A stretch of DNA of 64,000 nucleotides, from contig OY970261.1 in assembly GCA_963715635.1 (NCBI GenBank), forward strand, positions 1,086,438 through 1,150,437, given 5' to 3'. The stretch comes from Candidatus Aminicenantes bacterium. GTDB taxonomy: Bacteria; Acidobacteriota; Aminicenantia; Aminicenantales; UBA4085. The position numbers and the translations under genes were made by a program. This document shows, in pieces, positions 4,639-56,600 of this stretch (position 1 is the stretch's first letter; each line of letters begins with the position of its first letter). Under the pieces are notes generated by a model. That model searched no databases and was not told where the DNA came from. It was given only the letters and a program-made list of their open reading frames with translations.

Positions 4639-4693
4639 GAGTGTCCGACAGGACCCGCCCCGCCGCCCGTCCGAGAATAAAATGCGCTATTTC

Positions 4694-5857: not shown

Positions 5858-5869
5858 CTTTTTTCCTTT

Positions 5870-6025: not shown

Positions 6026-6037
6026 GGCATCTCTCCT

Positions 6038-9265: not shown

Positions 9266-9299
9266 TGGCGCTCAAGATCAGGGCGGGCGGGTCTGATTA

Positions 9300-10055: not shown

Positions 10056-10153
10056 GATCGGTTTTTCCTCTGGCTATTGATAGCATAGCTAAAGTGTTTT
10101 TTCCAGACGTTGTATCGGGGCTTGCCGAGAACCCGGCGCCGGCGGGCTTCTAA

Positions 10154-35977: not shown

Positions 35978-36054
35978 TATAAATAGGGGGGCCATCGTCC
36001 TTCAAAAGATGCCCCCCATTTGACGGACCTTATGGGTTGAGGGAGGAGGGAAAC

Positions 36055-38100
36055 ATGTCTAAAGAGGCTACGAAAAAAATTTTGATCAGGCCTATCATTT
36101 TTTGCTTTGTGGCATGCTTTGTCTTTTCCGGGATATCCCCGGTCGCTCAAAAGAATGACAAGCGGCTCGAGACCGAAACGTATTTCGATATGGAATCCAT
36201 CGGGAGCCCGCAGATTTCGCCCGACGGCAAAAGCATCATTTTCACAAGGGGCTGGGTCGATAAGGTCAACGACCAAGCGCGGAGCAACTTATGGATCGTT
36301 GATATCGAGGGAAAAAGAGTTCGGGAGGTGACACGCGGCAAATGGCGCGATACATCTCCGGTCTGGTCGCCCGACGGAAAAAAGATCGCTTTTCTTTCGG
36401 AACGGGATGATACGACCCAAATCCATGTCATGTGGTTGGACACGGGCGAGGTGGCCCAGCTCACGCACCTGGAACGGGCTCCGAGCAATCTTGTCTGGTC
36501 GCCCGACGGGAAAAAGCTTGCCTTCACGACTTTTCTGCCTGACGACAAGCCGATCCTGAACGTCAAGCTCCCCAAGCGGCCTGAAGGCGCTAAGTGGGCG
36601 GCGCCGGCGGTGCTCGTGGACCGCTTGGCCTGGCGCGCCGACGGAAGAGGCTGGCTTCCCAAAGGCTATACGCATATTTTCATGATTGATGCCGAACTGG
36701 GAGGCACACCTCGTCAGGTCACCTCCGGCGATTTTTCGCATAACGACCCTCAATGGTCGGCCGACGGAAAAACAATCTATCTTAGCGCCATCCGGAAGCC
36801 GGATGCCGAATACGAGTTCGGCGATTCCGAGATCTATGCCGCCGACCTCAAAACACTGGAGATTAAAGCCCTGACCGACCGCAAAGGCCCGGATGGCAGT
36901 CCGCGCCTCTCGCCGGACGGAAAGTGGATCGCCTATACGGGCTATGACGAAAAGAAATATACCAGCCATCTTTCGAGCCTTTATCTCATGGATTCAAGCG
37001 GCGGGTCCAAGCGCCTGCTGGCGGGGAACCTGCCCAGCTCGCCGTCCAACGCCGTCTGGGCCGCCGACAATTCCGGCGTATATTACCAGATGGAGGAGCG
37101 CGGCGAGGCCAATATCTATTTTGTTCCTCTGAACGGCGCGATCAGGAAAGTCACTAAAGGCGCCCATGTTCTGTCGGGCGTTTCGGTGGCCAAGAACGGC
37201 CAAGCCGCGGCGACCGTGACAACGCCGTCTCGGCCGGGCTATCTCGTCACATTTCCGCTGCTGAAACCCGAGATCCTCAAAGAGCTCGTCGACGTCAATG
37301 CCGATGTGCTGGCCGATATCAAGCTCGGCGAGGTCGATGAATTGCAGTTCAAGTCCCCGGACGGCCTTGACCTGCAGGGCTGGTTGATCAAGCCGGCGGA
37401 ATTCGATCCAGCCAAGAAATATCCGATGCTGCTCTACATTCACGGCGGCCCCTGGTCGATGTATTCCGTGGCCTTCAACTGGGATTGGCAGAACTTTGCC
37501 GCGAACGGCTATGCCGTATTGTTCATGAACCCGCGCGGGAGCACGGGCTACGGCCAGAATTTTGTGAACGGCATTCAATATTCGTATCCCGGCAAAGACT
37601 ATGAGGACCTGATGGCCGGGGTCGATGCAGCCCTGGCCAAGGGCTTCATCGACAAGGACAATTTATTCGTCTGCGGGGGCAGCGGCGGCGGCGTGCTGAC
37701 GGCCTGGATTGTCGGCCATACCAATCGCTTCCGGGCCGCCGTCTCCATGCGGCCGGTGATCAACTGGCATTCGTTCGTCGGCATCACGGATGGCCCGAGC
37801 TGGTACAGGCAGTTTAAGAAATACCCGTGGGAAGACCCGCTGGAATATGCCGTGCGCTCGCCGCTCAATTATGTGGCCAATGTCACGACGCCCACCATGG
37901 TCATGACGGGCGAAGCGGATCTCCGCACCCCCATCAGCCAGAGCGAGGAGTTCTATCGCGCCCTGAAGATGCTCAAGAAAGACACTCTGCTGGTCCGGAT
38001 GCCCGAGGAATTTCACGGCTGGAGGCGGCCCTCGCACCGGCTTCTCCAGCAGGCCTACCTGATGGCCTGGTTCGAGAAGTACAGAGTGAAGAAGCAGTGA
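36055..38100 (+). CDS. S9 family serine peptidase (acylaminoacyl-peptidase/dipeptidyl-peptidase type) with N-terminal TolB-like beta-propeller, secreted, 681 aa
   Basis: Repeated WSPDGKKIAF propeller blades. CGGSGGGVLTA catalytic GxSxG. GGAGG RBS before ATG 36055. Confidence 0.8.
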   Translation: MSKEATKKILIRPIIFCFVACFVFSGISPVAQKNDKRLETETYFDMESIGSPQISPDGKSIIFTRGWVDKVNDQARSNLWIVDIEGKRVREVTRGKWRDTSPVWSPDGKKIAFLSERDDTTQIHVMWLDTGEVAQLTHLERAPSNLVWSPDGKKLAFTTFLPDDKPILNVKLPKRPEGAKWAAPAVLVDRLAWRADGRGWLPKGYTHIFMIDAELGGTPRQVTSGDFSHNDPQWSADGKTIYLSAIRKPDAEYEFGDSEIYAADLKTLEIKALTDRKGPDGSPRLSPDGKWIAYTGYDEKKYTSHLSSLYLMDSSGGSKRLLAGNLPSSPSNAVWAADNSGVYYQMEERGEANIYFVPLNGAIRKVTKGAHVLSGVSVAKNGQAAATVTTPSRPGYLVTFPLLKPEILKELVDVNADVLADIKLGEVDELQFKSPDGLDLQGWLIKPAEFDPAKKYPMLLYIHGGPWSMYSVAFNWDWQNFAANGYAVLFMNPRGSTGYGQNFVNGIQYSYPGKDYEDLMAGVDAALAKGFIDKDNLFVCGGSGGGVLTAWIVGHTNRFRAAVSMRPVINWHSFVGITDGPSWYRQFKKYPWEDPLEYAVRSPLNYVANVTTPTMVMTGEADLRTPISQSEEFYRALKMLKKDTLLVRMPEEFHGWRRPSHRLLQQAYLMAWFEKYRVKKQ

Positions 38101-38161
38101 GCGGCGCGGGGCAGCATCCGTACGACCCGTGTCGGGTATAATTTTGTTAAGGGGTGATACG

Positions 38162-40009
38162 ATGTCTACAAAGGGCTTGTCAAAGGGTCGAAGATGTGTT
38201 CTTTTATTAGTTTTGATGATCGTGGTTGGAGCGAATTCGACGTATCCTGAGCGGACGGAAAAGCCGGTGCTTCACGGCAAGCACTGGATCGCCATCACCG
38301 GCAAGCCGATCGCGGCCACGGCCGGAGCCATGATGTTCATAAAAGGCGGGAATGCCGTCGATGCCGCCTGCGCCATGCTCGGGGCCGTTTGTACGATGTG
38401 GGACGTGTTGAGTTGGGGAGGAGAAACCCAGGCGCTCATTTATAACCCGCAAACCAAAAAAGTGATTGCCATCAACGGCTTGGGCGTTGCCCCGACCGGG
38501 GCCACTCCGGAATTTTACAGATCCAAAGGTTATAAATATCCGCCGGCGACCGGCCCGTTGGCTGCCGTCACTCCTGGAACTCCCGGCGGCCTGATCACGA
38601 TGCTCGCTGAATATGGCACCTTCAGCCTGAAAGACGTGCTTGCTCCAGCCATCCAGATGGCAGAGGGCTATCCGATGGAGAAAGACACGGTCGATAGGAT
38701 CGAAAAAGATATGGAAAAAATCAAGCAGTGGCCCTATTCCAAGAAGATCATGCTTCCGCATCTTGGGGAGAGCCACGAAGCTCCTTATCCGGGCGAGGTC
38801 TTCCGTCAGCCCGACCTTTTGGACACGCTGAAAAAAATCGTCACCGCCGAGCAGGAAGCACTGGCCAAAGGAAAGAGCCGGAAGGATGCGCTCTATGCCG
38901 CTTACGACCGGTTTTACAAGGGCGACATAGCCCGGGAGTTCGTCCGCGGCTCGCACGAACAGGGCGGACTCATAACGATGGAAGATCTGGCCAAGTGGAA
39001 GGTCTATATCGAAGAACCAGTGATGAGCACGTATAAAGGGATCGATGTCTACAAGCTGAATTCCTGGGTGCAGGGGCCGGTGATGCTCCAGGCGTTGAAC
39101 ATGCTGGAAAACTTGGACTTGAAAGCAATGGGCTTTAACAGCGCCAAATACATCCATGCCCTCTATCAGGTTATGAATCTGGCGTTTGCCGATCGGGATT
39201 TTTATTATGGCGATCCCTATTTCCCGCCCGAGGAGCCCATGAAGGGACTTCTTTCCAAAGAATATGCGAGAGACCGCCTGAATCTCCTCCATTGGGAACG
39301 CAATGAGCCTTCGGTCAAGCCCGGCGATCCCTATTCTTATGAAGGGAAAAAGAACCCGTTTCTGAAATATCTGGTGACGTGGCCGCCCTCAGAAAAGGAT
39401 ACGGCCGCTAAAGAGGAATCATTCTGGGGGGGAACGACCTCCATCCAATCCGCTGATGAAAAAGGCTGGGTCGTTTCGGTCACGCCGAGCGGCGGCTGGG
39501 TCCCGGCCGTGATCGCCGGCCGGACGGGAATCGGCATGAGCCAGCGCGCCCAGAGCTTTGTCCTCGACCCGGCAGAAAATCCGTTTAACGTCATCGCTGC
39601 CGGCAAACGGCCAAGAGCCACGCTGTCGCCCGGCCTAGCCCTCAAAGACGGGAAGCCCTATCTTTCGTTTGCCGTCCAGGGAGGCGATACCCAGGACCAG
39701 AATCTCCTCCAGTTCTTCCTGGATGTGGTGGAGTGGGGGATGAACGTCCAGGAGGCATGCGAAGCGCCGAACATCACGAGCTATCAGATGCGCAATTCTT
39801 TTGAGGACCACAAGCCCATCCCCGGCAAGCTCGAGATCAATGAAAAAGTCCCGGCCGAAGTCAGAGAAAAGCTCAAAGCCATGGGATATGTACTAGACGT
39901 CAAAAAATATACTTCCGGCCCGATCAATGCCATCTTCTTCGATTGGAAACATGGGACCTTATGGGGCGGCTCGAGCAATTACGGCGACGACTATGGAATC
40001 TCTTGGTGA
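38162..40009 (+). CDS. gamma-glutamyltransferase (GGT) family Ntn-hydrolase, secreted, 615 aa
   Basis: GGTTSIQSADEKGWVVSVTPSGG block containing the Thr nucleophile; overall length is typical of GGT. Confidence 0.75.
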   Translation: MSTKGLSKGRRCVLLLVLMIVVGANSTYPERTEKPVLHGKHWIAITGKPIAATAGAMMFIKGGNAVDAACAMLGAVCTMWDVLSWGGETQALIYNPQTKKVIAINGLGVAPTGATPEFYRSKGYKYPPATGPLAAVTPGTPGGLITMLAEYGTFSLKDVLAPAIQMAEGYPMEKDTVDRIEKDMEKIKQWPYSKKIMLPHLGESHEAPYPGEVFRQPDLLDTLKKIVTAEQEALAKGKSRKDALYAAYDRFYKGDIAREFVRGSHEQGGLITMEDLAKWKVYIEEPVMSTYKGIDVYKLNSWVQGPVMLQALNMLENLDLKAMGFNSAKYIHALYQVMNLAFADRDFYYGDPYFPPEEPMKGLLSKEYARDRLNLLHWERNEPSVKPGDPYSYEGKKNPFLKYLVTWPPSEKDTAAKEESFWGGTTSIQSADEKGWVVSVTPSGGWVPAVIAGRTGIGMSQRAQSFVLDPAENPFNVIAAGKRPRATLSPGLALKDGKPYLSFAVQGGDTQDQNLLQFFLDVVEWGMNVQEACEAPNITSYQMRNSFEDHKPIPGKLEINEKVPAEVREKLKAMGYVLDVKKYTSGPINAIFFDWKHGTLWGGSSNYGDDYGISW

Positions 40010-40054
40010 TTCTCCGACCCTCCGAGAGTTGTATAATAGGAGTGGGTGAGGAAA

Positions 40055-41089
40055 ATGAACGAAGACGACAAACATCCTTTGGACTGGCTGAGTGGAGAGG
40101 CGGCGGCCGAACCTTCGCGCCCTTGTGAAGTCGATCAGGCGGCCGTTTCTTCCGTGGACCTCTTGGACGCGTATTCCAAGGCCGTCATCGCCGTCGTCGA
40201 GGCCGTCGGTCCAGCGGTCGTCAGCATATCCGTCGGCCAGGAGACGTCGCGGTCGGAGTTCGAGCCGATGGGCGCGGGCTCGGGATTTGCCATCACGCCG
40301 GACGGGTACCTGCTGACCAACAGCCACGTCGTCGCCGATGCCAAAAAGATCGAGACAACCTTCATGGACGGCAGGCGCCTCGAGGCAACGCTCGTCGGGC
40401 TGGACGCGTTGACCGACCTGGCCGTGATCCGCGTGAACGCTTCAGCGCTTCCCTATGCAGAGTTGGGCGAGTCTTCCGGCCTGAGGGTCGGGCAGCTGGT
40501 GATTGCCATGGGAAACCCGCTGGGCTTTCAGTCAACAGTTTCAACCGGAGTCATCAGCGCGCTCGGTCGAACACTCCGCAGCCAAATGGGACGGCTCATC
40601 GAAAATATTATCCAGCATACGGCGCCCTTGAACCCGGGGAATTCGGGCGGTCCGCTTCTTGATGCCAAAGGCAGGGTTGTGGGCATCAACACGGCCATCA
40701 TCGCCATGGCCCAGGGGATCGGCTTTTCCATTCCCTCCAACACGGCCAAATGGGTGGTTTCGCAGCTCCTAACCCAGGGCAAGGTCCGGAGAAGCCACCT
40801 GGGGCTCGTGGGATACTCTAGGCAGCTCGACCGCCGCATCGTCCGTTTTCACAAGCTCAACAAAAACGCCGCTGTCGAGATCGTCGGCATCGAGCCGAGC
40901 GGGCCGGCCAAGAATTCCGGCCTGAGAACCGGGGACCTGGTTGTCGCGATCAATCAAAACGAGGTGACGAGCGTGGACGACATGTTCCGCATCCTGGCCG
41001 AATGGCCGGTCGGGCAGCCTCTCATCCTGACGGCTATCCGGGGCAAAGAGCGGATCGAGATGAGCGTTGCGCCCATCGAAGCCACATAA
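40055..41089 (+). CDS. trypsin-like serine protease, HtrA/DegP family with C-terminal PDZ domain, 344 aa
   Basis: TNSHVV (His), GNSGGPLLDAKGRVVGINTAI (Ser). PDZ-like C-terminus (GIEPSGPAKNSGLRTGDLVVAINQNEV). Confidence 0.85.
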   Translation: MNEDDKHPLDWLSGEAAAEPSRPCEVDQAAVSSVDLLDAYSKAVIAVVEAVGPAVVSISVGQETSRSEFEPMGAGSGFAITPDGYLLTNSHVVADAKKIETTFMDGRRLEATLVGLDALTDLAVIRVNASALPYAELGESSGLRVGQLVIAMGNPLGFQSTVSTGVISALGRTLRSQMGRLIENIIQHTAPLNPGNSGGPLLDAKGRVVGINTAIIAMAQGIGFSIPSNTAKWVVSQLLTQGKVRRSHLGLVGYSRQLDRRIVRFHKLNKNAAVEIVGIEPSGPAKNSGLRTGDLVVAINQNEVTSVDDMFRILAEWPVGQPLILTAIRGKERIEMSVAPIEAT

Positions 41090-41099: not shown

Positions 41100-43742
41100 A
41101 TGATAAAAAAAATCGTCTATTCCTTTTTGATCGCGGCGTTTCTCGTCGCCGGCGGCAGCCGATGCGCCAGACGATCGAGCTCTATGCCTGCCTATAAAAA
41201 CCCCGATCTTCCGCTGGAAAAAAGGCTGAATGACCTCGTTTCGCGAATGACGCTTGAAGAAAAAGTCTCCCAGATGATGAACGATGCGACCGCTGTCGAA
41301 CGGCTCGACATTCCTAGATATGACTGGTGGAATGAAGCCCTCCACGGTGTGGCCCGGGCGGGCCTGGCCACTGTCTTTCCCCAGGCCATCGGCCTGGCCG
41401 CAACCTGGGATACCGGTCTCATGCACCGGGTGGCTCAAGTGATTTCTGACGAGGGACGGGCCAAGCACCATGAGTTTGTCCGGCGCGGCCTGCGCGGGAT
41501 CTACCAAGGTCTGACGTTCTGGTCGCCAAACATCAACCTATTCCGAGATCCCCGTTGGGGCCGGGGGATGGAAACATATGGCGAGGATCCCTATCTGACG
41601 GGCCGGATGGGAGTCGCCTTTATCCGGGGCCTGCAGGGCGACGACCCAAAATACATTAAGGTCGTAGCCACGCCCAAGCACTATGTCGTCCACAGCGGGC
41701 CCGAACCGGACCGCCATTCGTTCGATGCCGTCGTTGATGAGCGGGACTTTCGCGAATCCTACCTGCCGCATTTCGAGGCCTGCATTGTGGAGGCCAAGGC
41801 CTTTTCCGTGATGTGCGCTTACAACCGGTACCTGGGCGAAGCGTGCTGCGGGAGCTCGAGGCTTCTGACCTCGATCCTGAGGAAGGAATGGGGTTTCGGC
41901 GGATATGTTGTTTCCGACTGCGGAGCCATCGGCGATATCTCGGCCGGCCACAAAATCGTCGGGACCTCCGCCGAAGCGGCGGCCCTGGCCGTCAAGTCCG
42001 GGTGCGACCTCAGCTGCGGCCATGAGTATAAGAGTCTGTTGGAGGCCGTCAAGAAGGGCCTGATCACGGAGAAAGAGATCGACGTTTCCGTCAAGAGGCT
42101 TTTCCGGGCGAGGTTCATCCTGGGCATGTTCGACCCTCCGCAGATCGTGCCCTATGCCAACATTCCCTATTCGGTGGTCGATAGCCAGCCGCACAAAAAC
42201 CTGGCGCTCGAGGCCGCCCAGGAGTCGATCGTTCTTTTGAAAAATGAGAAGAATACGCTGCCCTTGCCCAAGACATTGAAAACAATCGCGGTCATCGGGC
42301 CGAATGCGTCCGACGTAGAAGTGCTGCTCGGCAACTATAACGGAACGCCGTCTCATCCTATCACGCCTTTGCAGGGCATCCTCGACAAAGTCGCTCCCGC
42401 GACAAACGTCCTTTATGCATTGGGCTGCGAATGGGCGGCGAATATGCCGGTCCTCGAAGTCGTCCCTGATTCCGCCTTCGTCACGTCCACGGCCGGCCGG
42501 AAGATGAACGGCCTGAAGGGCGAATATTTCAACAACCGCGATTTGCAGGGAGAGCCGGTGTTCATGCGTATCGATAAAAATATCGATTTCAACTGGTGGG
42601 ACGGAGCGCCGGACCCAAATTTTGACCCGGACAATTTCAGCGTGCGCTGGACAGGCGAGATCGTCCCGCCGGTGTCGGGGACCTACGCGCTCGGCGCCGA
42701 AGGGTTCAACGGGTTCCGGCTTTTTCTGGGCGATGAACTCGTCGTCCAGTTCAACGGAACGCATCACCCGAGAAAGACCTATAAGCCGGTTCCTCTCGTC
42801 AGCGGCAAGAGCTATAAAATCAAGCTCGAGTTCTTCGAGCGGGCCGGCGACGCCCATATCAAGCTTTTATGGAGGCGGCCCGGCCTCGAGGCGAAGAAGG
42901 AGGCCTTGGAGAAGGCCGGGCAGGCTGACGCCGTGGTCCTAGTCATGGGCCTCTCCCCGCGGCTTGAGGGGGAGGAAATGGATGTGCCGGTAGAGGGCTT
43001 TTCCGGCGGCGACCGTTTGACACTGGACCTGCCGGCCGTCCAGGAGGACTTGATTAAATCAGTCGCGGCGCTCGGCAAGCCGGTCGTCCTGGTCCTTCTG
43101 AATGGAAGCGCGGTGGCGGTCAACTGGGCCGCCGAGCATATCCCGGCTATCATCGAGGCATGGTATCCCGGCCAGGCGGCGGGCCAAGCCCTTGCCGACG
43201 TTTTGTTCGGCGACTATAATCCCGGCGGACGGCTGCCCGTCACGTTTTACAGGTCTGTCGCCGATTTGCCGCCGTTTAAAGATTATCAAATGAAGGGGCA
43301 CACCTACCGTTATTTTGAAGGCGAGCCTCTGTACCCGTTTGGCTTTGGCCTGAGCTATACGAAATTTGAGTATTCGAATCTCATGCTCCCCAAAATCATG
43401 GCCCGGAATGAGGAGATCACGGTTGCGGTGGATGTCCAAAATGCGGGCGCCAGGGCCGGGGAGGAAGTCGTCCAGCTTTACCTGACGGACGTGGAAGCTT
43501 CTGTCCCTGTCCCTCTCCGGTCTTTGCAAGGGTTCGAGAGGGTTTCCTTGAACCCGGGAGAAAAGAAGACCGTTCGATTTACCTTGAAGCCAGATCAATT
43601 TTCCTTGATCGATAAGGATTTCAAGAGGACCATCGAGCCCGGCGCTTTTGAGGTGGCCGTGGGCGGAATGCAGCCCGGATTCAAGGGGAAGGCCGCCGAA
43701 TGTGCCTCCCAAGTGCTCACCGCCAGACTGGACATAAAATAA
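41100..43742 (+). CDS. GH3 beta-glucosidase/beta-xylosidase with inserted PA14 domain and C-terminal Fn3-like domain, secreted, 880 aa
   Basis: KHYVVHSGPE and GFGGYVVSDCGAIGDI GH3 blocks. GLKGEYFNNRDLQGEPVF...NFDPDNFSVRWTGEI is a PA14 signature. Confidence 0.85.
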   Translation: MIKKIVYSFLIAAFLVAGGSRCARRSSSMPAYKNPDLPLEKRLNDLVSRMTLEEKVSQMMNDATAVERLDIPRYDWWNEALHGVARAGLATVFPQAIGLAATWDTGLMHRVAQVISDEGRAKHHEFVRRGLRGIYQGLTFWSPNINLFRDPRWGRGMETYGEDPYLTGRMGVAFIRGLQGDDPKYIKVVATPKHYVVHSGPEPDRHSFDAVVDERDFRESYLPHFEACIVEAKAFSVMCAYNRYLGEACCGSSRLLTSILRKEWGFGGYVVSDCGAIGDISAGHKIVGTSAEAAALAVKSGCDLSCGHEYKSLLEAVKKGLITEKEIDVSVKRLFRARFILGMFDPPQIVPYANIPYSVVDSQPHKNLALEAAQESIVLLKNEKNTLPLPKTLKTIAVIGPNASDVEVLLGNYNGTPSHPITPLQGILDKVAPATNVLYALGCEWAANMPVLEVVPDSAFVTSTAGRKMNGLKGEYFNNRDLQGEPVFMRIDKNIDFNWWDGAPDPNFDPDNFSVRWTGEIVPPVSGTYALGAEGFNGFRLFLGDELVVQFNGTHHPRKTYKPVPLVSGKSYKIKLEFFERAGDAHIKLLWRRPGLEAKKEALEKAGQADAVVLVMGLSPRLEGEEMDVPVEGFSGGDRLTLDLPAVQEDLIKSVAALGKPVVLVLLNGSAVAVNWAAEHIPAIIEAWYPGQAAGQALADVLFGDYNPGGRLPVTFYRSVADLPPFKDYQMKGHTYRYFEGEPLYPFGFGLSYTKFEYSNLMLPKIMARNEEITVAVDVQNAGARAGEEVVQLYLTDVEASVPVPLRSLQGFERVSLNPGEKKTVRFTLKPDQFSLIDKDFKRTIEPGAFEVAVGGMQPGFKGKAAECASQVLTARLDIK

Positions 43743-43990
43743 GGGCATGTTCCGAATTCTGAGGGATTCGGCATGTACCCATATATTTCTGCCAAGGAAT
43801 AGCTCGTTTTGACTGTCTAATCTATGGATGAGGTTTAGCGAAATATGACCGGAATGGCTGTCAATTGTCACAAACGGAGGACAGTTGCGAGATTGCCGCG
43901 GATAAGTATAAGGGGAGAAAATTTGGCACGCTTCTTGTATAATAGGGGAGCAGGATGGCTATGACGTCATTGCCACGCTCCCGGTTAAAA

Positions 43991-44019
43991 TTGACAAATT
44001 CTATAGGAATATGTATATT
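43991..44019 (+). promoter_or_regulatory. sigma-70-like promoter TTGACA-N17-TATATT upstream of 44071 gene
   Basis: Read directly in the 330-bp AT-richer intergenic region. An extended-10-like TGTATAAT element is also present near 43936. Confidence 0.45.
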
Positions 44020-44070
44020 TAAGCCAACGGAGAGCGATTTGAAAGGAACACCTAGGAAAGGAGGCCTACC

Positions 44071-47000
44071 ATGATTTCTGGGCTAATGACAAAACGCGTT
44101 CAAAAAACTGTTTTTCTGGCCGCGGCTCTTTGTTTGGGCTTAGTTCTGTCCAGCCCGCCCGTTTTCGGACAGTACTTCGGCCGGAACAAAGTCCAGTATG
44201 AGAAATTTGATTATAAGGTCATGAAGACCGAGCATTTTGATATGTATTTTTATCCTGAGGAAGAGCAGGCCGTCCGGTCCGCCGCTCTGATGGCCGAGCG
44301 CTGGTACAAGCGATACGCCAAGCTCTTCAATTATGAGCTGCGCGGGCGGCAGGCCTTGGTCATGTACGCCAGCCACCCCCAATTTGAGCAGACGACCGTG
44401 CTGTCCGACATCATCGGCGAAGGCACCGGCGGTGTCACGGAATCCATCAAGCGCCGTATCATCCTTCCCTTCGGCGGTTCCCTCCAAGAAACAGACCACG
44501 TCATCGGTCACGAGCTCGTCCATGCCTTCCAGTATGACATGGCTTCCGGGCCGACTCCGCAGTACTCCGGCCAGGCCGCCGGAGGGCTGGAACGGGCGCC
44601 CCTGTGGGTCATCGAGGGAATGGCGGAATATCTTTCGATCGGCCCCGTCGACCCGAACACCGCGATGTGGATGCGCGACGTGATCAAGCAAAAGAAAATC
44701 CCCACGATCAAAGACCTGCGAAATCCACGTTACTTTCCCTATCGCTATGGCCAGGCAGTCTGGGCCTATATTGGCGGCCGCTGGGGCGACCTTGTCGTGG
44801 CCAAGTTGATGAAGGACATCTGCCGCGGCGCCGATTATGAAAAAGCCCTGGAACACGCGCTTGGAGAGAACCTGAAAAAGTTGGGCGAGGACTGGCAGGC
44901 CTCGATGAAAAAGGACTATACACCCGTCCAGCAGGGGACGCAGTCCCCGACGGCCACGGGGCGGCTGCTGGTCCAGGGGTCCGAAGAGGACCGGTATAAT
45001 GTCGCTCCCGTGCTCAGCCCGGACGGCAAGAAATTTGTCTATATCTCTTCCAGAGACCTCTTTTCTCTGGAGATGTTCATGGGCGATGCGAAAACCGGAA
45101 AAACGACCAAGCGGCTCACCAGGACCTCGGTGGACCCCCATTTCCAGAGCATTCAGTTCATCAACTCCGCCGGGTCCTGGGACTTGGAGGGCAATCGGTT
45201 TGCCTTCGGGGCGGTGAGCGCCGGCAAGCCGGTGCTGGCTTTTCTCGACGTCGAAGGCCAAAAAATCGCCGATGAGATCCAGTTCCCGGAGCTCGGGGAG
45301 ATCCTCAACCCGACCTGGTCTCCGGACGGCAAAGAGGTCGCTTTCTCGGCCCTGGCCGGCGGCTATACCGATATTTACATCTACGACCTGGAAACCAAGA
45401 AATTGAAGAACATGACAAATGACCCCTACGGGGACATCCATCCCGTTTGGTCGCCGGATGGCCGCTCGATCGCCTTCGTCACGGAACGGTTCACGACACA
45501 GCTTTCGGTGCTGAACATGGGGAATTTTCGTCTGGCCTTGTTGGACCCTGAAACAGGAGAAATCAAGGAGCTCAAGGCATTCGATGACGCCAAGAATATC
45601 AACCCTCAGTGGTCGTCGGATTCGAGGTCGCTCTACTTTGTTTCCGACCACAAGGGCATTTCCAACGTGTATAGGCTCGAGATCGCGTCCGGGGCATTGA
45701 GCGAACTCTCAAACCTCTACACCGGCGTCAGCGGGATCACCACTCTCAGCCCCGCCCTGTCCATCGCCGCAAAATCCAACGATCTCCTGTACAGCGTCTA
45801 TGAAAACGGGAATTTCAGCATTTTTACCATCGAACCGCATGACTTGTTGGCGGGCAAGGCCGTGGAATCCCGGGCGGACCAGGCATATTCTCCGGCCGTG
45901 CTGCCTCCCAAGGAACGCTCGGGATCGGAAATTCTCGGGCTGCTCAAGAATCCCTGGTTCGGGCTTCCAGCGGACGCTTCGAAGTTTGCCGTCAGTCCCT
46001 ATAAGCCTAAATTGTCCTTGGATTACGTGGCCCCGCCGCAGGTGGGTGTCGGCGTCGACCGTTTCGGCACTTATGGTGGAGGCGGCCTTTCTCTGTTCTG
46101 GAGCGATATGCTGGGGTATCACAACCTGGGCACGATGGTCCAGGTCAGCAGCCGAATTGACGAATCCGCTGCCATTGTCCAATACTTCAACTCCAGGAAC
46201 CGCCTGAACTGGGGCGTGGCGGCTTATCGCATCCCTTATATTTACGGAGGCTATGGGATTTATGCGGATAATGTCTTCGGTGAGCCGGCGTACAGCGAAG
46301 TCGAGGACCTTTATGAACAAATCTATTATCAGCTCGGCGGCTTTGCTTCGTATCCGTTCAGCCAAATGCAGCGGTTTGAGCTATCGGCGGGCCTCAATTA
46401 CATCGATTTTAGACACGTTCAATATATCACCTCCTACTCGGCCATCGACGGTACGCAGCTTTTATATGAAAAGCATGTTATCGACGATATGCCGCCCGGC
46501 CTGACTATGGCCTATGCTGGCGCCGCTCTTGTCTATGATAGCGCGTTCTTCGGCGCGACGGCCCCCATCCTGGGTCAGAGCTACAGGCTTGAAGTGGCCC
46601 CTACGATCGGGTCCTTAAATTTCTATACATTATTAGGGGATTATCGCCGGTATTTTATGCCTATCAAGCCGTTTACTCTGGCCTTCCGGGTCATGACATA
46701 TGGGCGCTACGGAAAAGGCAGCGATGACTCGCGGCTGTACCCCATGTTTCTGGGCTATGAAGATTTGGTGCGGGGGTATAATTACGGAGATTTTACCGCG
46801 GAGGAAGTCGATCCTCAGACCGGATCGTTCAATTTCAACAGGCTGTGGGGAAGCCGGATGATCGTCGCCAATGCGGAGCTGCGTTTTCCTTTGTTTGGCG
46901 CCTTTGGGATCGGCAAAGGTTTCTACGGTATTTTCCCGATCGATTTTGTTGCCTTTTATGATGCCGGCGTGACCTGGGATTCCTCCACGAGTCCGGGTTT

Positions 47001-47196
47001 GGCATTGCACCCGTTTTCAAATAGTCTCCCGGGGTCCCCTAAGTCCGGAGTGCAGTACCCCGTCTCTAGCGCGGGTTTAGGCGTGAGAGTCAACCTCCTG
47101 GGGTATCTTGTTCTGGGCGTTAATTATGTCTGGCCGTTCGACCGGCCCGCCCGAAAGACGGGATACTGGGAATTCAGCTTCTATCCGGGATTTTAG
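44071..47196 (+). CDS. large outer-membrane protein: N-terminal gluzincin metalloprotease domain (HExxH...E) + TolB-like beta-propeller + C-terminal beta-barrel ending in an OMP beta-signal, 1041 aa
   Basis: Signal peptide. DHVIGHELVHAFQYD (HExxH) plus VIEGMAEYLS (third-ligand Glu). Propeller blades (LSPDGKKFVYIS, WSPDGKEVAFS, WSPDGRSIAFV, WSSDSRSLYFV). About 450 aa of alternating amphipathic strands ending YWEFSFYPGF with a terminal Phe. Confidence 0.65.
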   Translation: MISGLMTKRVQKTVFLAAALCLGLVLSSPPVFGQYFGRNKVQYEKFDYKVMKTEHFDMYFYPEEEQAVRSAALMAERWYKRYAKLFNYELRGRQALVMYASHPQFEQTTVLSDIIGEGTGGVTESIKRRIILPFGGSLQETDHVIGHELVHAFQYDMASGPTPQYSGQAAGGLERAPLWVIEGMAEYLSIGPVDPNTAMWMRDVIKQKKIPTIKDLRNPRYFPYRYGQAVWAYIGGRWGDLVVAKLMKDICRGADYEKALEHALGENLKKLGEDWQASMKKDYTPVQQGTQSPTATGRLLVQGSEEDRYNVAPVLSPDGKKFVYISSRDLFSLEMFMGDAKTGKTTKRLTRTSVDPHFQSIQFINSAGSWDLEGNRFAFGAVSAGKPVLAFLDVEGQKIADEIQFPELGEILNPTWSPDGKEVAFSALAGGYTDIYIYDLETKKLKNMTNDPYGDIHPVWSPDGRSIAFVTERFTTQLSVLNMGNFRLALLDPETGEIKELKAFDDAKNINPQWSSDSRSLYFVSDHKGISNVYRLEIASGALSELSNLYTGVSGITTLSPALSIAAKSNDLLYSVYENGNFSIFTIEPHDLLAGKAVESRADQAYSPAVLPPKERSGSEILGLLKNPWFGLPADASKFAVSPYKPKLSLDYVAPPQVGVGVDRFGTYGGGGLSLFWSDMLGYHNLGTMVQVSSRIDESAAIVQYFNSRNRLNWGVAAYRIPYIYGGYGIYADNVFGEPAYSEVEDLYEQIYYQLGGFASYPFSQMQRFELSAGLNYIDFRHVQYITSYSAIDGTQLLYEKHVIDDMPPGLTMAYAGAALVYDSAFFGATAPILGQSYRLEVAPTIGSLNFYTLLGDYRRYFMPIKPFTLAFRVMTYGRYGKGSDDSRLYPMFLGYEDLVRGYNYGDFTAEEVDPQTGSFNFNRLWGSRMIVANAELRFPLFGAFGIGKGFYGIFPIDFVAFYDAGVTWDSSTSPGLALHPFSNSLPGSPKSGVQYPVSSAGLGVRVNLLGYLVLGVNYVWPFDRPARKTGYWEFSFYPGF

Positions 47197-47363
47197 GAAA
47201 AGACGCGGGTCCCCCCTCCGCTACGGGGGCTTGAGGACGGCCTAAGCGCCGCCCATACATTGTCAATTTATTTATTGCGTTTGTAGTAGTACTTTTCTGG
47301 CAATAACAATTCCCCTATTGATATATCCCCGTTTTCTGTATAAATTGGAGAAACGAGGTCGCT

Positions 47364-49842: not shown

Positions 49843-51060
49843 ATGGAAAGAAAAGCTAATATCAAAAAAAAGAAATCGAAAAGCCCTCCGTCACTTGCCG
49901 GCGCGGGTTCACGTTTCACCGAGCTCAAGCGGGTGAAAGAGGCGCTCCGTGAATCTGAGGAGAAATTGCCCAAGCTGGTTGAGGCGGTGCCCGTAGGCAT
50001 AGGGATATTAGACCTGAAGGGGAATGTCTATTCTATAAACCGGACAGTGGAGGAGATGACAGGCTATTCGCAAGAGGAATTCAAAACAATCAATGTTGGG
50101 GAAACTTACGCGGATGCCAACGATCGCAGGGAGATGCTCAAAATCCTGGATGAAACAGGTAAACTCCGGGATTACACAGTCAGGATGAAGCGAAAAGACG
50201 GGACGGCTTATTATGCTCTCCTCAACATAGACCAGATAGAATTGGGCGGACAGCGAGTCTTACTTATGGCCCAGCAGGACATCACCGCCCTCAAAAAGGC
50301 TGAGGAAGAGATCGTGAGATTAAATAAGGACCTTGAGAGCCGGGTCGTTCAACTTTCCGCCTTGAACACGGACCTGGAACGTTCCAACAGAGATCTTGAA
50401 CAGTTCGCTTATGTCGCCTCTCATGACCTTCAGGAGCCGCTGAGAATGATCTCCAGCTTCACCCAGCTCTTGGAGCAGCGCTATAAAGGAAAACTCGACA
50501 AGAGTGCCGATGAATTTACCAAGTTTGTCGTGGATGGCGCCAACCGCATGCAGCGCATGATCAATGACCTTTTATCCTACTCCCGCATTTCCAGCCGCGG
50601 CAAGCCCTTCGAGCCTGTCAGCAGCGAAGAGATCCTGGCCCAGGTTCAGGTCAACCTTCTTCTTTTAATCGAAGAGAACCATGCTCTTCTGACCCATGAA
50701 TCCTTGCCTGAGATTACTGCCGATGCTTCCCAGATGCTCCTTCTGTTCCAGAACTTGATCGGAAATGCAATAAAATTCAAGGGAAAGGAGCCGCCCCGGG
50801 TCCATGTCTTCTCTGAGTCAAGGGAGGAAGAATGGATGTTTGGAGTCCGGGATAACGGCATAGGCATAGCCAAAGAATATTTCGACCGAATTTTCGTCAT
50901 CTTCCAGCGCCTGTACAGCAGAGAAGAGTATTCGGGAACGGGCATCGGGCTGGCCATCTGCAAGAAGATTGTGGAAAGGCATGGCGGGCGGATCTGGGTG
51001 GAATCAGAGCTCGGCAAAGGTTCCACTTTCTTTTTCACAATACCAAAAAGGAGGGAATGA
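49843..51060 (+). CDS. PAS-domain sensor histidine kinase (Cph1-type HisKA), 405 aa
   Basis: PAS ([18 protein letters not shown]), H-box [14 protein letters not shown], HATPase [32 protein letters not shown]. Confidence 0.9.
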
Positions 51061-51518
51061 TTATGGTTTCCGAAATCGCGGTCCATCCCATCGAAATCTT
51101 ATTGGTTGAGGACAATCCGGGGGATGCCCGGCTGGCCTTGGAAGTTTTCCAGGACGCCAAAGTCCGCAACACTCTGCACCGGGTGGATAACGGCCAGGAG
51201 GCGATGGATTTTCTGCGGAAAGAGGGTAAGCATGCTCAAATGGCGCGGCCCGACCTCATCCTGCTGGACCTCAACCTTCCCGGAAAAGACGGCCGGGAGG
51301 TTCTGGCAGAGATCAAAGAAGACCCCGACCTGAAGCGAATCCCAGTGGTTATCTTGACAGTTTCTAAGGATGAGGAAGACGTCCTGAAGACGTACAACCT
51401 CCATGCGAACTGTTTTATCACAAAGCCCATTGACTTGAATCAATTCATCAAGGTCGTGAAATCCATCGAGGACTTCTGGCTGACTGTGGTCAAGCTGCCG
51501 CCGGACGGGAGCAAGTGA
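51057..51518 (+). CDS. single-domain response regulator (Rcp1/CheY-like receiver), 153 aa
   Basis: [13 protein letters not shown], phospho-acceptor Asp in [13 protein letters not shown], conserved Lys in ITKP. Overlaps the HK stop by 4 nt. Confidence 0.9.
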
Positions 51519-51947: not shown

Positions 51948-54900
51948 ATGACCGACAAAAAGATCAAGGTGCTGATGATCGAGGATAGCCCCGGGGATAT
52001 CCGCCTCATTCGCGAAATGTTTAAGGAAGTGGGCATCAGCCTGTTTGAGCTTGAAACTGCCTCCTGCCTCAAGGAGGGGTTGGAGAAAATCAAAGAGACC
52101 TTGTATGACGTCATCCTCTTGGATCTCGGGCTGCCCGACAGCCGGGGACTTGAGACGTTCATCAAGGTCAATGTTCAGAAACAAGAGGTTCCGATTATCG
52201 TGCTGACAGGTCTCGCCGATGAAACGCTTGCTCTCGATGCCATAAAAAGAGGGGCACAGGATTATCTTGTCAAAGAGCAACTCAACACCGGCCGGCTGGC
52301 GACGTCGATCAGCTATGCCATTGAACGCAAAAAAACAGAACGCCGGCTTATCAAGTCTGAGCAATGGTTTCGAATGCTGATCGAAACCTCTCCAGAAGTG
52401 GTCACCGCAATGGATTTGGAGGGCAGGATTACATACGTTTCCCCCCGAGCTCTCGAGCTCCACGGTTTTAAGAGTCCCGAAGAGCTCATCGGGAAAAACA
52501 TTCTTGAGCTCCTTTCTCCGGAAGATCACGAACGGGCGAAGAAAAATCTTCAGATAACCTTGAAAGACGGTATTTTAAAAAATGAACAATATGCCCTGGT
52601 CAAGAAAGACGGAACCCGATTTGTCGGCGAACTCAGTTCCGCCCTGGTTTGTGATATCGGGGGAGAACTGAAAGGCTTTGTCGCCATTACAAGAGATATT
52701 ACCGAGCGCAGGCTGGCGGAGGAGGCCCTAAAAAAGCGGAATGCCCAGCTTGAGCTGATTTATCATATTCAAAGCGAAATTCCGGCGAATACCGATATTG
52801 AAACGGTGCTCGTCCGGGCGGCCGAAAGCATCGGCAAATCCTTCGGATATTACAAGATTTCCGTGAACCTTTATCATCCGGAGACGGAAGAAATCGAATA
52901 TCTGACCGGCTGGAACAAATCGGGCCTTCTTATCCCCAGGGGCCATAGACAAAAACTTGGGCAGGGGCTTATCGGCAAGGCGGGTCTCTTGAAACAGACG
53001 ATTATCGCTAATGATGTTTCCAAAGAGCTGGACTATATCCCCTATCACCTTACGGAGACAAAAGCGGAGTTGATCATTCCTCTAGTTGTCCAGGATCAGC
53101 TCATTGGGGTTCTCGACCTCCAATCGACTCAGATCAACGCCTTCTCTGAAGACGATGTCTCCGTCCTGCAGGCCATCGCCAGCTATATTGCCCACATTAT
53201 CGATAAGAAGCGGGAGGGAGACGCGCTGAGGGAAAGTGAGCAGAAATTCAAGAATCTTGCCGAACAGGCGCCTAACATGATTTTTATCAACGAGAAGGGC
53301 AGAGTCGTTTTTGCCAACAAGAAGTGCGAAGAGATTATGGGATATCAAAGAGAGGAGATTTACTCGCCTGATTTCGATTTTCTCGTTTTGATTGCGCCGG
53401 AAGATAAAGCCAAGATAAAGGCAAATTTCGCCAAACATTTGCGAGGAGAAGAGAATCCTCCATTGGAATACGCCATTCTCACCAAAGAGGGAAAAAGAAT
53501 CGACGCCATACTTGCCACAACACTTATCGACTATGGGGGAGGGAAAGCCATCCTCGGCACAATCACAGACATCACCGAGCGGAAGTGCGCCGAAAAGGCC
53601 CTGCAGGAGTCGGAAGAAAAATACCGCAATCTCTTTGAGGAAGCGCGGGATGCTATCGCCGTGGCGTCTGCTGAGACGGGCATAATAATCGACTGCAATC
53701 GGGCGGCCACTCTGCTTTGGGGCCGAGAGAAATCGGAACTTGTGGGCCAGCACCAGCGCATACTCCACCCCTCGGAGGAAATAAAAGGCGGAATCTCCCG
53801 GACCTTCCAACAACATCTCGGGGAAAAAGAAGGGCAGGTGCTCGAAGCGCAGATTGTGACCAAGAACGGGGAAATTAGAGGCGTGGAAATCATGGCCAGT
53901 GTCTTTGAGCTAGGCGGCCGGCGACTCATTCAGGGTATATTCCACAACGTCACAGAACGGAGGCGGGCGGAGGAAGAGCTCAAAAAGTCGGAAGAGCGGT
54001 TCAGACTTGTGTTCGAATCTGCTCCCGACGCCTACTATTTGAACGACCTGAAAGGCCATTTTATTGACGGCAATAAGGCCGCGGAGAAACTGACGGGCTA
54101 TAAGAGGGAGGAGCTCGTCGGAATGAGCTTCTTGAAGCTGAACCTGCTTTCTGCGGAGTTTATTCCGAAAGCCGCTTATCTTTTAGTCAAAAACCTAAGA
54201 GGCAAGCCGACCGGGCCCGATGAATTTATTTTGAAAAGAAAAGACGGCAGCAAGGTCGCGGTTGAAATCAGCACCCACCCCGTAAAGGTCGGGGGAAAAG
54301 CGGTCGTTTTGGGAATCGCCAGAGACATCACGGAGCGAAAGAAGGCGGAGCAGGCCCTGAAAGAAAACGAGGAAAAATATCGAACCTTAACCGAAAATGT
54401 CAACATCGGAGTTTACAGAAACACGGTGGGACCCAAAGGCAGGTTCATCGAGGCGAATTCCGCCGAGGTTAAGATGTTTGGTTATAAGAAAAAAAAGGAA
54501 TTCCTGGCTTTGAATGTTTCTGATTTATACGAAAACGAAGCGGACAGAGAAAAATTTAGCGAAAAAATAGTCAGACAGGGATTTGTCAGGAATGAGGAAA
54601 CACACCTCAAGAAAAAGGACGGGAGTTCGATCATTTGTTCGGTATCGGCGGTCGCCGTCAAGGATGGGCAAGGAAACGTCCAATATTTCGACGGAACCAT
54701 TGAAGACATCACCGAGCGCAAGCGGGCGGAGGAGGCGTTGCACGAGAGCGAAGAGAAATATCGGACTCTGGTGGAAAACGCCGCGGAAGCCATCCTCATC
54801 GCCCAAGACGGCATGCTGAAGTTCGTCAATCGTATGGCGAGTGAGATAACCGGTTATTCGGAGCAAGAACTGCGTTCCTCGCCTTTTCTCGAGTTCATTC

Positions 54901-56600
54901 ATTCGGATGACCGGCAGATGGTGGGCGAGCGTTATTTGAGACGCCTCAATGGCGATGTGTCTCTGCCCAGATATGCGTTCAGGTTGGTTAACAAAGACGG
55001 GAGTATCAAGTGGGTGGAGATCGATGCGGTCTTGGTTACTTGGGAAGACAAACCCGCGACATTGAATTTTCTCAGTGACATCACCGAGCGAAAGCGAGTG
55101 GAGGAAGAGCTGAGCAAGCACCGGGAGCACCTCGAGGAGCTTGTCCAGGAACGGACCAAAGAGCTCGAAGAGGCGAAGCAGGACGCCGATGCGGCCAATC
55201 GGGCCAAGAGCGTCTTTCTGGCTAATATGTCGCATGAGATTCGGACGCCGATGAACGCTATCCTTGGATTTTCCCAGTTGATGCGGCAAGATGATACGCT
55301 GAATCCCCGGCAACGGAAGCATCTAGACACCATCAACCGGAGCGGTGAGCACTTGATGGCGCTCATTAACGATGTTCTGGAAATGTCGAAAATAGAAGCC
55401 GGCCGGACGACTCTCAACTCCACGACATTCGACCTCCGGGCGCTGCTCGAGGATCTGGAGATGATGTTTCGCGTACGCACGGACGCGAAAAAGCTGAATT
55501 TTGCCGTGGAGGGCCTGGGTCACATACCTGATTATGTCGTGGGGGATCAAGGCAAACTCCTCCAGGTCTTCATCAACCTGCTCGGGAACGCCGTAAAGTT
55601 CACCGAGAAGGGCGGCATCCTTCTGAGGGTGCGTGTGAATCAGGAGAGCTCGAATAGACTTCGTTTGCAGGCGGAAGTGGAAGACACGGGACCGGGCATT
55701 CCGGAAACGGAACTGAATAACCTGTTTAAACCTTTCCAGCAAACGCAGAATAGCCGCCGGGCCGGATCGGGCACGGGTTTGGGCCTGGCGATCAGCAAGG
55801 CATTTGTCCGCCTGATGGGAGGGGACATCACGGTCGGCAGCAAGGACGGGACCGGATGCTTAATCAAGTTCGATGTTCAGCTGGGAGAGAGCGAGGCTGG
55901 CTCAGACAAGAAAAAGCCGGAATCGGCTCGGGTGAGAGGCCTCCGGCCGGGACAGCCGACGTATCGAATCCTGATTGCCGATGACGAGGACACGAACCTG
56001 ATGCTCATTTCCCAGATGCTCGGCAATATCGGATTCGAAACGAGACAGGCGACTAACGGCGAAGAAGCTGTCGAGACATTCAAGGCATGGCAGCCGCACC
56101 TGATTTTCATGGACATGCGCATGCCCGTGATGGACGGCTACGAAGCCATCCGTCGCATCAGGGCCGGCGCCGGCGGCCGGGACGTCAAGATCGTGATTGT
56201 ATCGGCCAGCGCGTTTGAGCAGAACCGCCAGGAAGCCCTCCGGGCCGGCGCCGACGATTTTATGGCCAAGCCTTTTCGGGAAGCGGTGCTTTTCGAGATG
56301 ATCGGAAAGTTCCTGGGGGTTGAGTACGTTTTTTCCGATGAGGCTGGGCCCGCAAAACTCCTGCCCGGCGCCGCGGTGATGAGCGCGATGACGGCAGAAA
56401 TTTTGTCGGTTCTGCCGGAGGAGTCCGTCAATAAGATGCGGGACGCCGTCATCAACGCGGACTTTGACCTGATGATGGAGTTGGTCGGCGGCGTCGAGGA
56501 CCACAACATCCTTGTCGCCCAGGAACTGCGAAGCCTTATCGAACGTTTTGAATACACGGAATTCCTTGAGCTTTTACGGACAGGAAGAAACGCCCGATGA
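51948..56600 (+). CDS. multi-sensor hybrid histidine kinase: N-terminal REC, about 6 PAS domains, GAF domain, HisKA, HATPase, C-terminal REC (1550 aa)
   Basis: REC (ILLDLGLPD). Repeated (E/K)SE(E/Q)K(Y/F)R PAS starts. GAF (GLIGKAGLLKQTII...VLDLQS). H-box MSHEIRTPMNAILGF. G2 box GTGLGLAISKAF. C-terminal REC (IFMDMRMPVMDG). Confidence 0.9.
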   Translation: MTDKKIKVLMIEDSPGDIRLIREMFKEVGISLFELETASCLKEGLEKIKETLYDVILLDLGLPDSRGLETFIKVNVQKQEVPIIVLTGLADETLALDAIKRGAQDYLVKEQLNTGRLATSISYAIERKKTERRLIKSEQWFRMLIETSPEVVTAMDLEGRITYVSPRALELHGFKSPEELIGKNILELLSPEDHERAKKNLQITLKDGILKNEQYALVKKDGTRFVGELSSALVCDIGGELKGFVAITRDITERRLAEEALKKRNAQLELIYHIQSEIPANTDIETVLVRAAESIGKSFGYYKISVNLYHPETEEIEYLTGWNKSGLLIPRGHRQKLGQGLIGKAGLLKQTIIANDVSKELDYIPYHLTETKAELIIPLVVQDQLIGVLDLQSTQINAFSEDDVSVLQAIASYIAHIIDKKREGDALRESEQKFKNLAEQAPNMIFINEKGRVVFANKKCEEIMGYQREEIYSPDFDFLVLIAPEDKAKIKANFAKHLRGEENPPLEYAILTKEGKRIDAILATTLIDYGGGKAILGTITDITERKCAEKALQESEEKYRNLFEEARDAIAVASAETGIIIDCNRAATLLWGREKSELVGQHQRILHPSEEIKGGISRTFQQHLGEKEGQVLEAQIVTKNGEIRGVEIMASVFELGGRRLIQGIFHNVTERRRAEEELKKSEERFRLVFESAPDAYYLNDLKGHFIDGNKAAEKLTGYKREELVGMSFLKLNLLSAEFIPKAAYLLVKNLRGKPTGPDEFILKRKDGSKVAVEISTHPVKVGGKAVVLGIARDITERKKAEQALKENEEKYRTLTENVNIGVYRNTVGPKGRFIEANSAEVKMFGYKKKKEFLALNVSDLYENEADREKFSEKIVRQGFVRNEETHLKKKDGSSIICSVSAVAVKDGQGNVQYFDGTIEDITERKRAEEALHESEEKYRTLVENAAEAILIAQDGMLKFVNRMASEITGYSEQELRSSPFLEFIHSDDRQMVGERYLRRLNGDVSLPRYAFRLVNKDGSIKWVEIDAVLVTWEDKPATLNFLSDITERKRVEEELSKHREHLEELVQERTKELEEAKQDADAANRAKSVFLANMSHEIRTPMNAILGFSQLMRQDDTLNPRQRKHLDTINRSGEHLMALINDVLEMSKIEAGRTTLNSTTFDLRALLEDLEMMFRVRTDAKKLNFAVEGLGHIPDYVVGDQGKLLQVFINLLGNAVKFTEKGGILLRVRVNQESSNRLRLQAEVEDTGPGIPETELNNLFKPFQQTQNSRRAGSGTGLGLAISKAFVRLMGGDITVGSKDGTGCLIKFDVQLGESEAGSDKKKPESARVRGLRPGQPTYRILIADDEDTNLMLISQMLGNIGFETRQATNGEEAVETFKAWQPHLIFMDMRMPVMDGYEAIRRIRAGAGGRDVKIVIVSASAFEQNRQEALRAGADDFMAKPFREAVLFEMIGKFLGVEYVFSDEAGPAKLLPGAAVMSAMTAEILSVLPEESVNKMRDAVINADFDLMMELVGGVEDHNILVAQELRSLIERFEYTEFLELLRTGRNAR

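Follow-up and report, generated by a model that had tools for sequence, protein, structure and literature searches.

Results

Domain organization of the protein

We analyzed a 64-kb stretch of DNA (64,000 nucleotides, referred to here as the window) from contig OY970261.1 of a Candidatus Aminicenantes bacterium. The subject is the open reading frame (ORF) at 44071..47196 on the forward strand. It starts with ATG and encodes a single polypeptide of 1,041 amino acids, followed by a stop codon, that carries all of the domains described below. An earlier description made from the letters of the window (the sequence-only reading) divided this protein into a signal peptide, a zincin protease, a TolB-like propeller and a C-terminal β-barrel, and our analysis recovered each of these parts:

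44071..47196, forward strand: the whole ORF, very probably a WD40-like member of the Omp85 superfamily.
44071..44169, forward strand: predicted signal peptide, residues 1 to 33, from the hydropathy maximum, with the cleavage site placed from homologues.
44170..44214, forward strand: mature N-terminal peptide QYFGRNKVQYEKFDY, residues 34 to 48, delimited by conservation and model confidence.
44215..44958, forward strand: gluzincin metallopeptidase domain, residues 49 to 296, with HELVH at 147 to 151, E182, Y224 and TGGVTE at 119 to 124.
44965..45828, forward strand: six-bladed TolB/PD40-type β-propeller, residues 299 to 586, with an SPDG-type motif in four blades.
45829..46014, forward strand: linker, residues 587 to 648, from secondary structure and conservation.
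46015..47193, forward strand: 16-stranded Omp85 barrel, residues 649 to 1041, from fold, VRGY, FxDxG and the C-terminal Phe.

The full-length AlphaFold2 (AF2) model has a mean predicted local distance difference test score (pLDDT) of 79.3 and a predicted template modeling score (pTM) of 0.70.

The gluzincin peptidase domain

HELVH (residues 147 to 151) is the sole HExxH sequence of the whole protein. In the AF2 model it lies on helix 138-159, and E182, the first Glu of EGMAEY (residues 182 to 187, within WVIEGMAEY), lies on helix 178-190. The domain has the arrangement of gluzincins, the clan MA(E) zinc metallopeptidases, with HExxH on the active-site helix and a downstream Glu on the next helix. 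It also has the thermolysin-like fold, in which a helical C-terminal subdomain follows an N-terminal mixed sheet that has an edge strand. Y224 is invariant and is located in an FPYRYG motif. TGGVTE (residues 119 to 124) is near-invariant and forms a short strand at the edge of the sheet.

The flagellinolysin HExxH model matched the domain at 5.9e-7. The domain profile matched M9 collagenase weakly (E 0.02) and in register: the HExxH sequences were paired, as were "w.sEGvAEYvs" with "lvEGmAEYls" and "YRwG" with "YRyG". The alignment with the M1 enzyme aminopeptidase A (E 0.86) paired HELVH and placed our Glu motif on "lwlNEGFA" (NEGFA). Because these alignments are in register, we infer that E182 is the third zinc ligand, as the sequence-only reading had proposed for EGMAEY, and that E148 is the general base; zinc binding and activity are thus predicted. 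Y224 is a candidate transition-state residue.

The best structural match of the peptidase domain was the Grimontia M9 collagenase 7wss (score, 17.7), followed by M30 lugdulysin (16.2), ERAP1 (15.0), ColT (14.5), other M1 enzymes including tricorn-interacting factor F3 (13 to 14), M61 (11.8) and thermolysin (9.2). A Peptidase_M9 match was also found in one homologue, P0252. Because the M9 and M30 matches are closer and because of the match in P0252, we lean toward an endopeptidase rather than an exopeptidase, although the comparison does not settle the matter. M1 enzymes have the GxMEN exopeptidase motif at the sheet-edge position upstream of HExxH, and M9 enzymes have a double-Gly edge strand there. 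In our protein, a conserved G121-V-T-E124-S precedes HExxH by 23 to 26 residues; this region is not covered by the profile alignment to 4kx7. The N- and C-terminal domains that flank the catalytic domain of M1 enzymes are absent, and the domain spans only about 250 residues.

Conservation of the active site and spread of the family

The family is large. More than 7,995 clusters at 90% identity matched at E ≤ 1e-10, and the best 120 were all full-length. At 50% identity, 2,068 clusters matched at E ≤ 1e-30, and most of the best 150 were full-length, down to 32% identity. Residue conservation was scored in 61 full-length homologues that are 30 to 61% identical to the protein. H147, E148, E182, G183, E186, G902, F962 and D964 are invariant in this set, and H151, R901 and G966 are at least 90% conserved.

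A wider motif census covered 249 full-length relatives. The strict HExxH...EGxxE pattern was kept in 242 of them, which argues against the inactive domain that the sequence-only reading had allowed for. Most of the seven exceptions are explained by gene starts that differ or by conservative substitutions (EGLAQ, EGLAD); in one relative, P0271, the sequence reads HEVAN, with the second His of HExxH replaced. Of the barrel motifs, xRG[YFW] was kept in 229 of 249 and [FYW]xDxG in 233 of 249, with an aromatic C-terminal residue in 243 of 249.

In a scan of one genome per species, at least 384 genomes encoded relatives. The best 80 of these belong to Aminicenantes, other Acidobacteriota, Gemmatimonadota, Ignavibacteria, Bacteroidota/Rhodothermales/Balneolaceae, Zixibacteria, KSB1 and Longimicrobiales. 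The closest relatives are proteins of Aminicenantes metagenome-assembled genomes (MAGs), and their annotations are generic ("BamA/TamA family," "TolB family," "PD40 domain-containing"). Some longer relatives gave split matches, and other C-terminal domains were considered for them; this was dismissed, as the Omp85 barrels are present there too.

Two side observations concern individual relatives. P0176 (1,284 amino acids) has an N-terminal Peptidase_M50 (site-2 protease) region that precedes the zincin, propeller and Omp85 parts; it could be a genuine fusion, or two adjacent genes may have been joined by the gene call. Three MAGs labeled "uncultured Eubacteriales bacterium" (loci L004, L007 and L035) encode copies that are 53 to 54% identical to our protein. 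The presence of an Omp85 barrel in nominally monoderm bins suggests wrong taxonomy or binning.

The propeller and the linker

The propeller has six blades. SPDG-type motifs lie at residues 316, 417, 461 and 515, that is, in four of the six blades. Four stretches matched Pfam PD40 (9.5e-24), and the TolB propeller model matched at 2.7e-32. TolB is the leading match both by sequence and by fold, and among the sequences of solved structures, matches came solely via the propellers of TolB and S9 peptidases. However, the TolB equivalog model TIGR02800 scored 112 bits against a cutoff of 343, and it covered the propeller part alone.

The linker that follows (residues 587 to 648) has the lowest conservation in the protein (0.34) and contains two short helices and short strands. 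POTRA-like repeats between the propeller and the barrel, which the sequence-only reading had raised as a point to check, were dismissed: a Pfam scan at E ≤ 1 returned no POTRA family, and the linker holds no β-α-α-β-β unit.

The Omp85 barrel

The C-terminal region is predicted to form a 16-stranded transmembrane barrel of the BamA/TamA type, which defines the Omp85 superfamily. The BamA barrel model matched residues 742 to 976 at 1.7e-7, and the C-terminal β-signal FSFYPGF ends in Phe. A soluble C terminus, which the sequence-only reading had named as one of two findings that would undo its proposal, does not agree with these results. The Omp85 signatures (V/I)RG(Y/F), at the tip of extracellular loop 6, and (F/G)xDxG, on strand 13, form a "lid lock" (PMC7644211). 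Both are present. Loop 6 (residues 881 to 928; 48 residues between strands 11 and 12) carries VRGY at 900 to 903, and strand 13 (residues 957 to 969) carries FxDxG as F962-Y-D964-A-G966. The Omp85-like nature of the barrel, offered earlier as one of two options, is therefore borne out by both motifs.

The signal peptide and the mature N-terminal peptide

The strongest hydrophobic segment of the protein is a 19-residue hydropathy maximum that begins at residue 14. It is preceded by an n-region with the basic residues K8, R9 and K12, and the hydrophobic core extends from about residue 14 to residue 28. At the corresponding N-terminal position, close homologues read PAxA/QYFG (the slash marks the cut). 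Because of the basic n-region, the hydrophobic segment and the sequence of the homologues, a Sec-type export signal with predicted cleavage by signal peptidase I between VFG and Q34 is likely. Cys21 was considered as a lipoprotein cysteine and dismissed. The sequence A-A-L-C puts Leu at position −1, which the lipobox consensus does not accept.

The mature peptide QYFGRNKVQYEKFDY (residues 34 to 48) has the highest conservation in the protein, with a mean top-residue frequency of 0.74 compared with 0.55 in the zincin and 0.48 in the barrel. F36 and G37 are invariant in the homologues at 30 to 61% identity. Despite this strong conservation, the pLDDT of the AF2 model is below 50 over residues 27 to 41. 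Such a combination of conservation and apparent flexibility points to a docking or plug element. The conserved Gln at +1 recalls the "Q-rule" of pyroglutamate formation in Bacteroidetes (PMC5837995).

Flanking DNA and genomic context

The gene is flanked by a GH3 β-glucosidase gene upstream and by GHL10/CBM9 genes downstream. The flanking features are as follows:

36037..38100, forward strand: S9 prolyl-oligopeptidase-family enzyme with its own PD40 propeller.
38129..40009, forward strand: gamma-glutamyltranspeptidase (GGT).
40046..41089, forward strand: HtrA-like Trypsin_2+PDZ protease.
41100..43742, forward strand: GH3+PA14 β-glucosidase.
43991..44019, forward strand: sigma-70-like promoter motif TTGACA-N17-TATATT, a motif match 52 nt upstream of the start codon.
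44054..44063, forward strand: Shine-Dalgarno-like GGAAAGGAGG before the start codon at 44071, identified by inspection of the sequence.
49843..51060, forward strand: PAS histidine kinase.
51057..51518, forward strand: receiver-only response regulator.
51948..56600, forward strand: hybrid kinase of 1,550 amino acids with multiple PAS domains, GAF, HisKA/HATPase and two receiver domains.

The Shine-Dalgarno-like ribosome-binding motif lies 7 to 16 nt 5' of the ATG. The upstream spacer (43743..44070; 328 bp) has a GC content of 44.8%, compared with 55.6% in the ORF. The promoter that had been proposed in this AT-richer spacer was located again: TTGACA-17-TATATT agrees with the promoter pattern at 11 of 12 positions and is the top site of the region, and by this motif match it is a predicted promoter. 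The upstream region contains 7 promoter-like sites, compared with 2.7 ± 1.7 in shuffled sequences. An RNA element in the 328-bp spacer was dismissed, because an Rfam scan at E ≤ 1 matched no family. The 3' spacer (47197..47363; 167 bp) starts with a G+C-rich inverted repeat, CCCCC..GGGGG, that has no T-run, and a second promoter-like site (TTGATA-17-TAAATT, 47318..47346) lies in it ahead of the GHL10 gene.

We clustered the ORFs of 80 genome loci that carry a family gene. No neighbor family was present in more than 11 of the 80. The largest cluster, sigma-54 response regulators, reached this number, and its positions varied. The peptide-catabolism neighborhood of the window was not kept beside the homologues in these loci. 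On this clustering, a conserved partner (a TpsA-like cargo, lipoproteins of the β-barrel assembly machinery [BAM], a TolB partner) was dismissed, and the gene is a stand-alone unit without a dedicated partner. The secretion module that the sequence-only reading had floated found no support, as no partner gene is kept adjacent. Paralogues of the barrel or zincin were also sought in the window and dismissed, the PD40 repeats of the S9 peptidase at 36037..38100 being the sole match. Two family ORFs per locus were found in only 3 of 73 loci.

In Gemmatimonadota loci, an MlaD-family gene is near the homologue in six cases and an SLT lytic transglycosylase gene with TPR repeats in five. They are mostly directly downstream and on the opposite strand (for example, 9133..10089 on the reverse strand in L041 and 3769..6204 on the reverse strand in L062). 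These are envelope-maintenance genes, and their synteny with the family is lineage-specific.

Discussion

An ordinary member of the WD40-like Omp85 subfamily

Heinz and Lithgow divided the Omp85/TpsB superfamily into ten subfamilies (2014, Front Microbiol 5:370, PMC4104836). One of them, the "WD40-like" subfamily, combines PF01103 with PF07676 repeats, has no POTRA and was likened to a fusion of BamA and BamB. Table S3 of that survey matches the barrels of its members to BamA 4k3b or TamA 4c00 and their propellers to TolB 2w8b or 2ivz, and it lists "aminopeptidase" entries (1z5h, 4kxd, 4fgm and 4ar1) that are M1/M9 peptidase folds. The main text treats the propeller alone, and the peptidase match is confined to Table S3. 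A later description of the subfamily mentions "divergent WD40 and peptidase domains" (PMC11358297). POTRA-free architecture is the rule in the WD40-like, Metallo and noNterm subfamilies.

Our protein shares with the WD40-like subfamily the Omp85 barrel, the TolB-matched PD40 repeats, the M1/M9-matched N-terminal domain and the lack of a POTRA. The phyletic spread of the subfamily, like that of the relatives found here, includes Rhodothermales and Bacteroidota. There is no difference in kind, and Aminicenantes were not seen among the members named in PMC4104836. We are therefore confident that the protein belongs to this subfamily and has the stated architecture, the assignment being made by identical architecture. 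The sequence-only reading had called the architecture unusual. This claim did not hold, and the architecture is not novel either, because the subfamily was catalogued in 2014 and has thousands of members in many phyla. The protein is an ordinary member of a catalogued, widespread and uncharacterized subfamily and not a new kind of system. Literature on Omp85 with PD40 or on WD40-like Omp85 consisted of the 2014 survey and the works that cite it, with no characterized member.

A proposed periplasmic zinc endopeptidase on an outer membrane barrel

In the WD40-like design, the POTRA domains of BamA are replaced by a module of about 550 residues, an M9/M30/M1-like gluzincin followed by a six-bladed TolB-like propeller. 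The protein would be exported by Sec and cut before Gln34. After recognition of the C-terminal β-signal, the 16-stranded barrel would insert into the outer membrane, and the pairing of VRGY with FxDxG would lock loop 6 in the lumen; the fold and the motifs are established, and the insertion is expected from them. The N-terminal module would stay in the periplasm, tethered to strand 1 by the linker of about 60 residues. By alignment and fold, H147, H151 and E182 would bind zinc with E148 as the general base, and Y224 and the edge strand 119-124 may hold an extended substrate chain. The propeller beside the active site may serve as a platform that binds the substrate or limits access. The likeliest job of such a protein would be to cut polypeptides that are unfolded, on the inner side of the outer membrane, comparable to a BepA-type zinc protease fixed permanently on an Omp85 barrel.

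On balance, we favor a zinc endopeptidase held at the periplasmic face of the outer membrane, possibly for quality control of envelope proteins. The parts of this proposal are not equally firm. A periplasmic location of the peptidase and propeller is probable, because the N termini of Omp85 barrels lie in the periplasm and because PlpD sets a precedent. PlpD had long been regarded as secreting its patatin domain as a passenger, but the domain stays in the periplasm, and folded N-terminal domains are argued to be unable to pass an Omp85 barrel (Hanson et al. 2024, PMC11116518). This removes the main precedent for surface display, and the surface anchoring suggested by the sequence-only reading is accordingly less likely than a periplasmic site. 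Quality control as the role, with unfolded polypeptides as speculative substrates, is a tentative and rather doubtful suggestion.

Several points weigh against our proposal. Peptidase_MA_2 scored 26.6 bits against a cutoff of 32.4, which is below threshold, and the Pfam Omp85 family did not match the protein, so that membership in both is argued from structure, motifs and homologues. The WD40-like subfamily has "not been well characterized" (Hanson et al. 2024, PMC11116518). The periplasmic placement of the module is drawn from Omp85 topology and from PlpD, and the quality-control role is an argument by analogy only. The nearest structural relatives of the peptidase domain, the M9 collagenases and M30, are secreted nutritional or virulence proteases, and the gene follows a peptide-catabolism run (S9 peptidase, GGT and HtrA-like protease). 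The M9/M30 likeness and these neighbors fit extracellular feeding as well as quality control.

Alternative explanations

These last two points, with the neighbors on the same strand upstream, are also what favors a feeding protease. The barrel would export its own peptidase and propeller in a type V-like manner, and the enzyme, displayed or released, would digest environmental proteins for a peptide-fermenting bacterium. Export was floated for enzyme-bearing Omp85 proteins by Heinz and Lithgow (PMC4104836). However, the N-terminal side of the barrel faces the periplasm, the lid-lock motifs, which hold loop 6 inside the lumen, are intact and conserved, and the cargo, a compact helical domain plus a closed propeller, would measure about 550 residues. 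In PlpD the domain remains in the periplasm, and moving a folded domain out through the barrel is argued to be energetically unfavorable (PMC11116518). The peptide-catabolism genes are not kept in the 80 other loci. An identity of 30 to 60% across phyla, the lack of a paralogue in the window and the rarity of two ORFs per locus look housekeeping-like. We consider feeding unlikely. A Tol-Pal-type tether or remodeling factor, whose propeller would bind peptidoglycan or a Pal/OmpA-like lipoprotein and whose zincin would cleave wall-linked peptides or lipoprotein tethers, is very unlikely. The propeller is nearest to TolB by sequence and by fold, and an SLT or MlaD-family gene adjoins the family gene in several Gemmatimonadota loci. 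However, this synteny is limited to one lineage (5 to 6 of 80 loci), the N-terminal domain of TolB is absent, and the M9/M30/M1-like fold is that of polypeptide peptidases and not of known peptidoglycan peptidase families.

The protein could instead be an insertase of outer membrane proteins, with a BamA/TamA-like barrel, the propeller as a built-in BamB-like scaffold and the peptidase as an accessory that trims or clears substrates. The comparison with a BamA-BamB fusion (PMC4104836) speaks for it. However, the POTRA domain is absent, as judged by the Pfam scan and the secondary structure of the linker, and the propeller is six-bladed and TolB-like where BamB is eight-bladed (PMC11358297). 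Conservation is higher in the zincin active site and in the N-terminal peptide than in the barrel, an indication that the protein exists for the sake of its enzyme. That such a barrel can serve chiefly as a scaffold is shown by PlpD (PMC11116518). We give the insertase little credence. Improbable too is a more elaborate version of the quality-control role, a one-polypeptide machine that is the covalent counterpart of the BAM-BepA complex. The strand 1/16 seam of the barrel would engage nascent or stalled β-barrel or lipoprotein substrates, which the propeller would retain for cutting by the M9-like zincin. QYFGxN (residues 34 to 39) might then be a regulatory plug or a partner-binding strand, like the N terminus of TolB. 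If this were true, it would be the first demonstration of a protease among Omp85 proteins.

Proteins of the Omp85 superfamily have a central part in building outer membranes. To our knowledge, the well-studied ones all insert or translocate proteins. PlpD indicates that the Omp85 scaffold can also carry a periplasmic enzyme (PMC11116518), and the WD40-like subfamily is large, kept across many phyla and experimentally untouched. Our analysis adds several points that make the family testable: the peptidase site is intact and strongly conserved, M9/M30 endopeptidases are the nearest in fold, the propeller is six-bladed, the barrel has both lid-lock motifs, and there is no operon partner.

Comparison with known systems

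The insertases BamA, TamA and Sam50 have POTRA domains, and our protein has an enzyme module in their place. PlpD is similar in joining an Omp85 barrel to an N-terminal hydrolase domain. However, PlpD has a patatin-type lipase and one POTRA and forms dimers, whereas our protein has a zinc peptidase and a propeller and no POTRA. The M9 collagenases (7wss, ColG/ColT), M30 lugdulysin and M1 aminopeptidases are 12 to 17% identical in sequence to the peptidase domain. Unlike in these relatives, the HExxH-to-Glu spacing is 30 residues, owing to an inserted loop. Our protein also lacks the activator and recruitment domains of the collagenases and the N- and C-terminal domains of M1 enzymes. TolB has an N-terminal α/β domain that binds TolA; this domain is absent here, and the propeller forms part of a membrane protein. 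BepA, a zinc protease of the periplasm, binds to BAM and breaks down LptD that has stalled (PMC8423444). The likeness to BepA is one of function only, a zinc peptidase at an Omp85 barrel whose edge strand engages stalled barrel proteins. BepA is a free-standing soluble protein of family M48 with a TPR domain, whereas the protein described here has another type of zincin, carries a propeller and is fused to the barrel itself.

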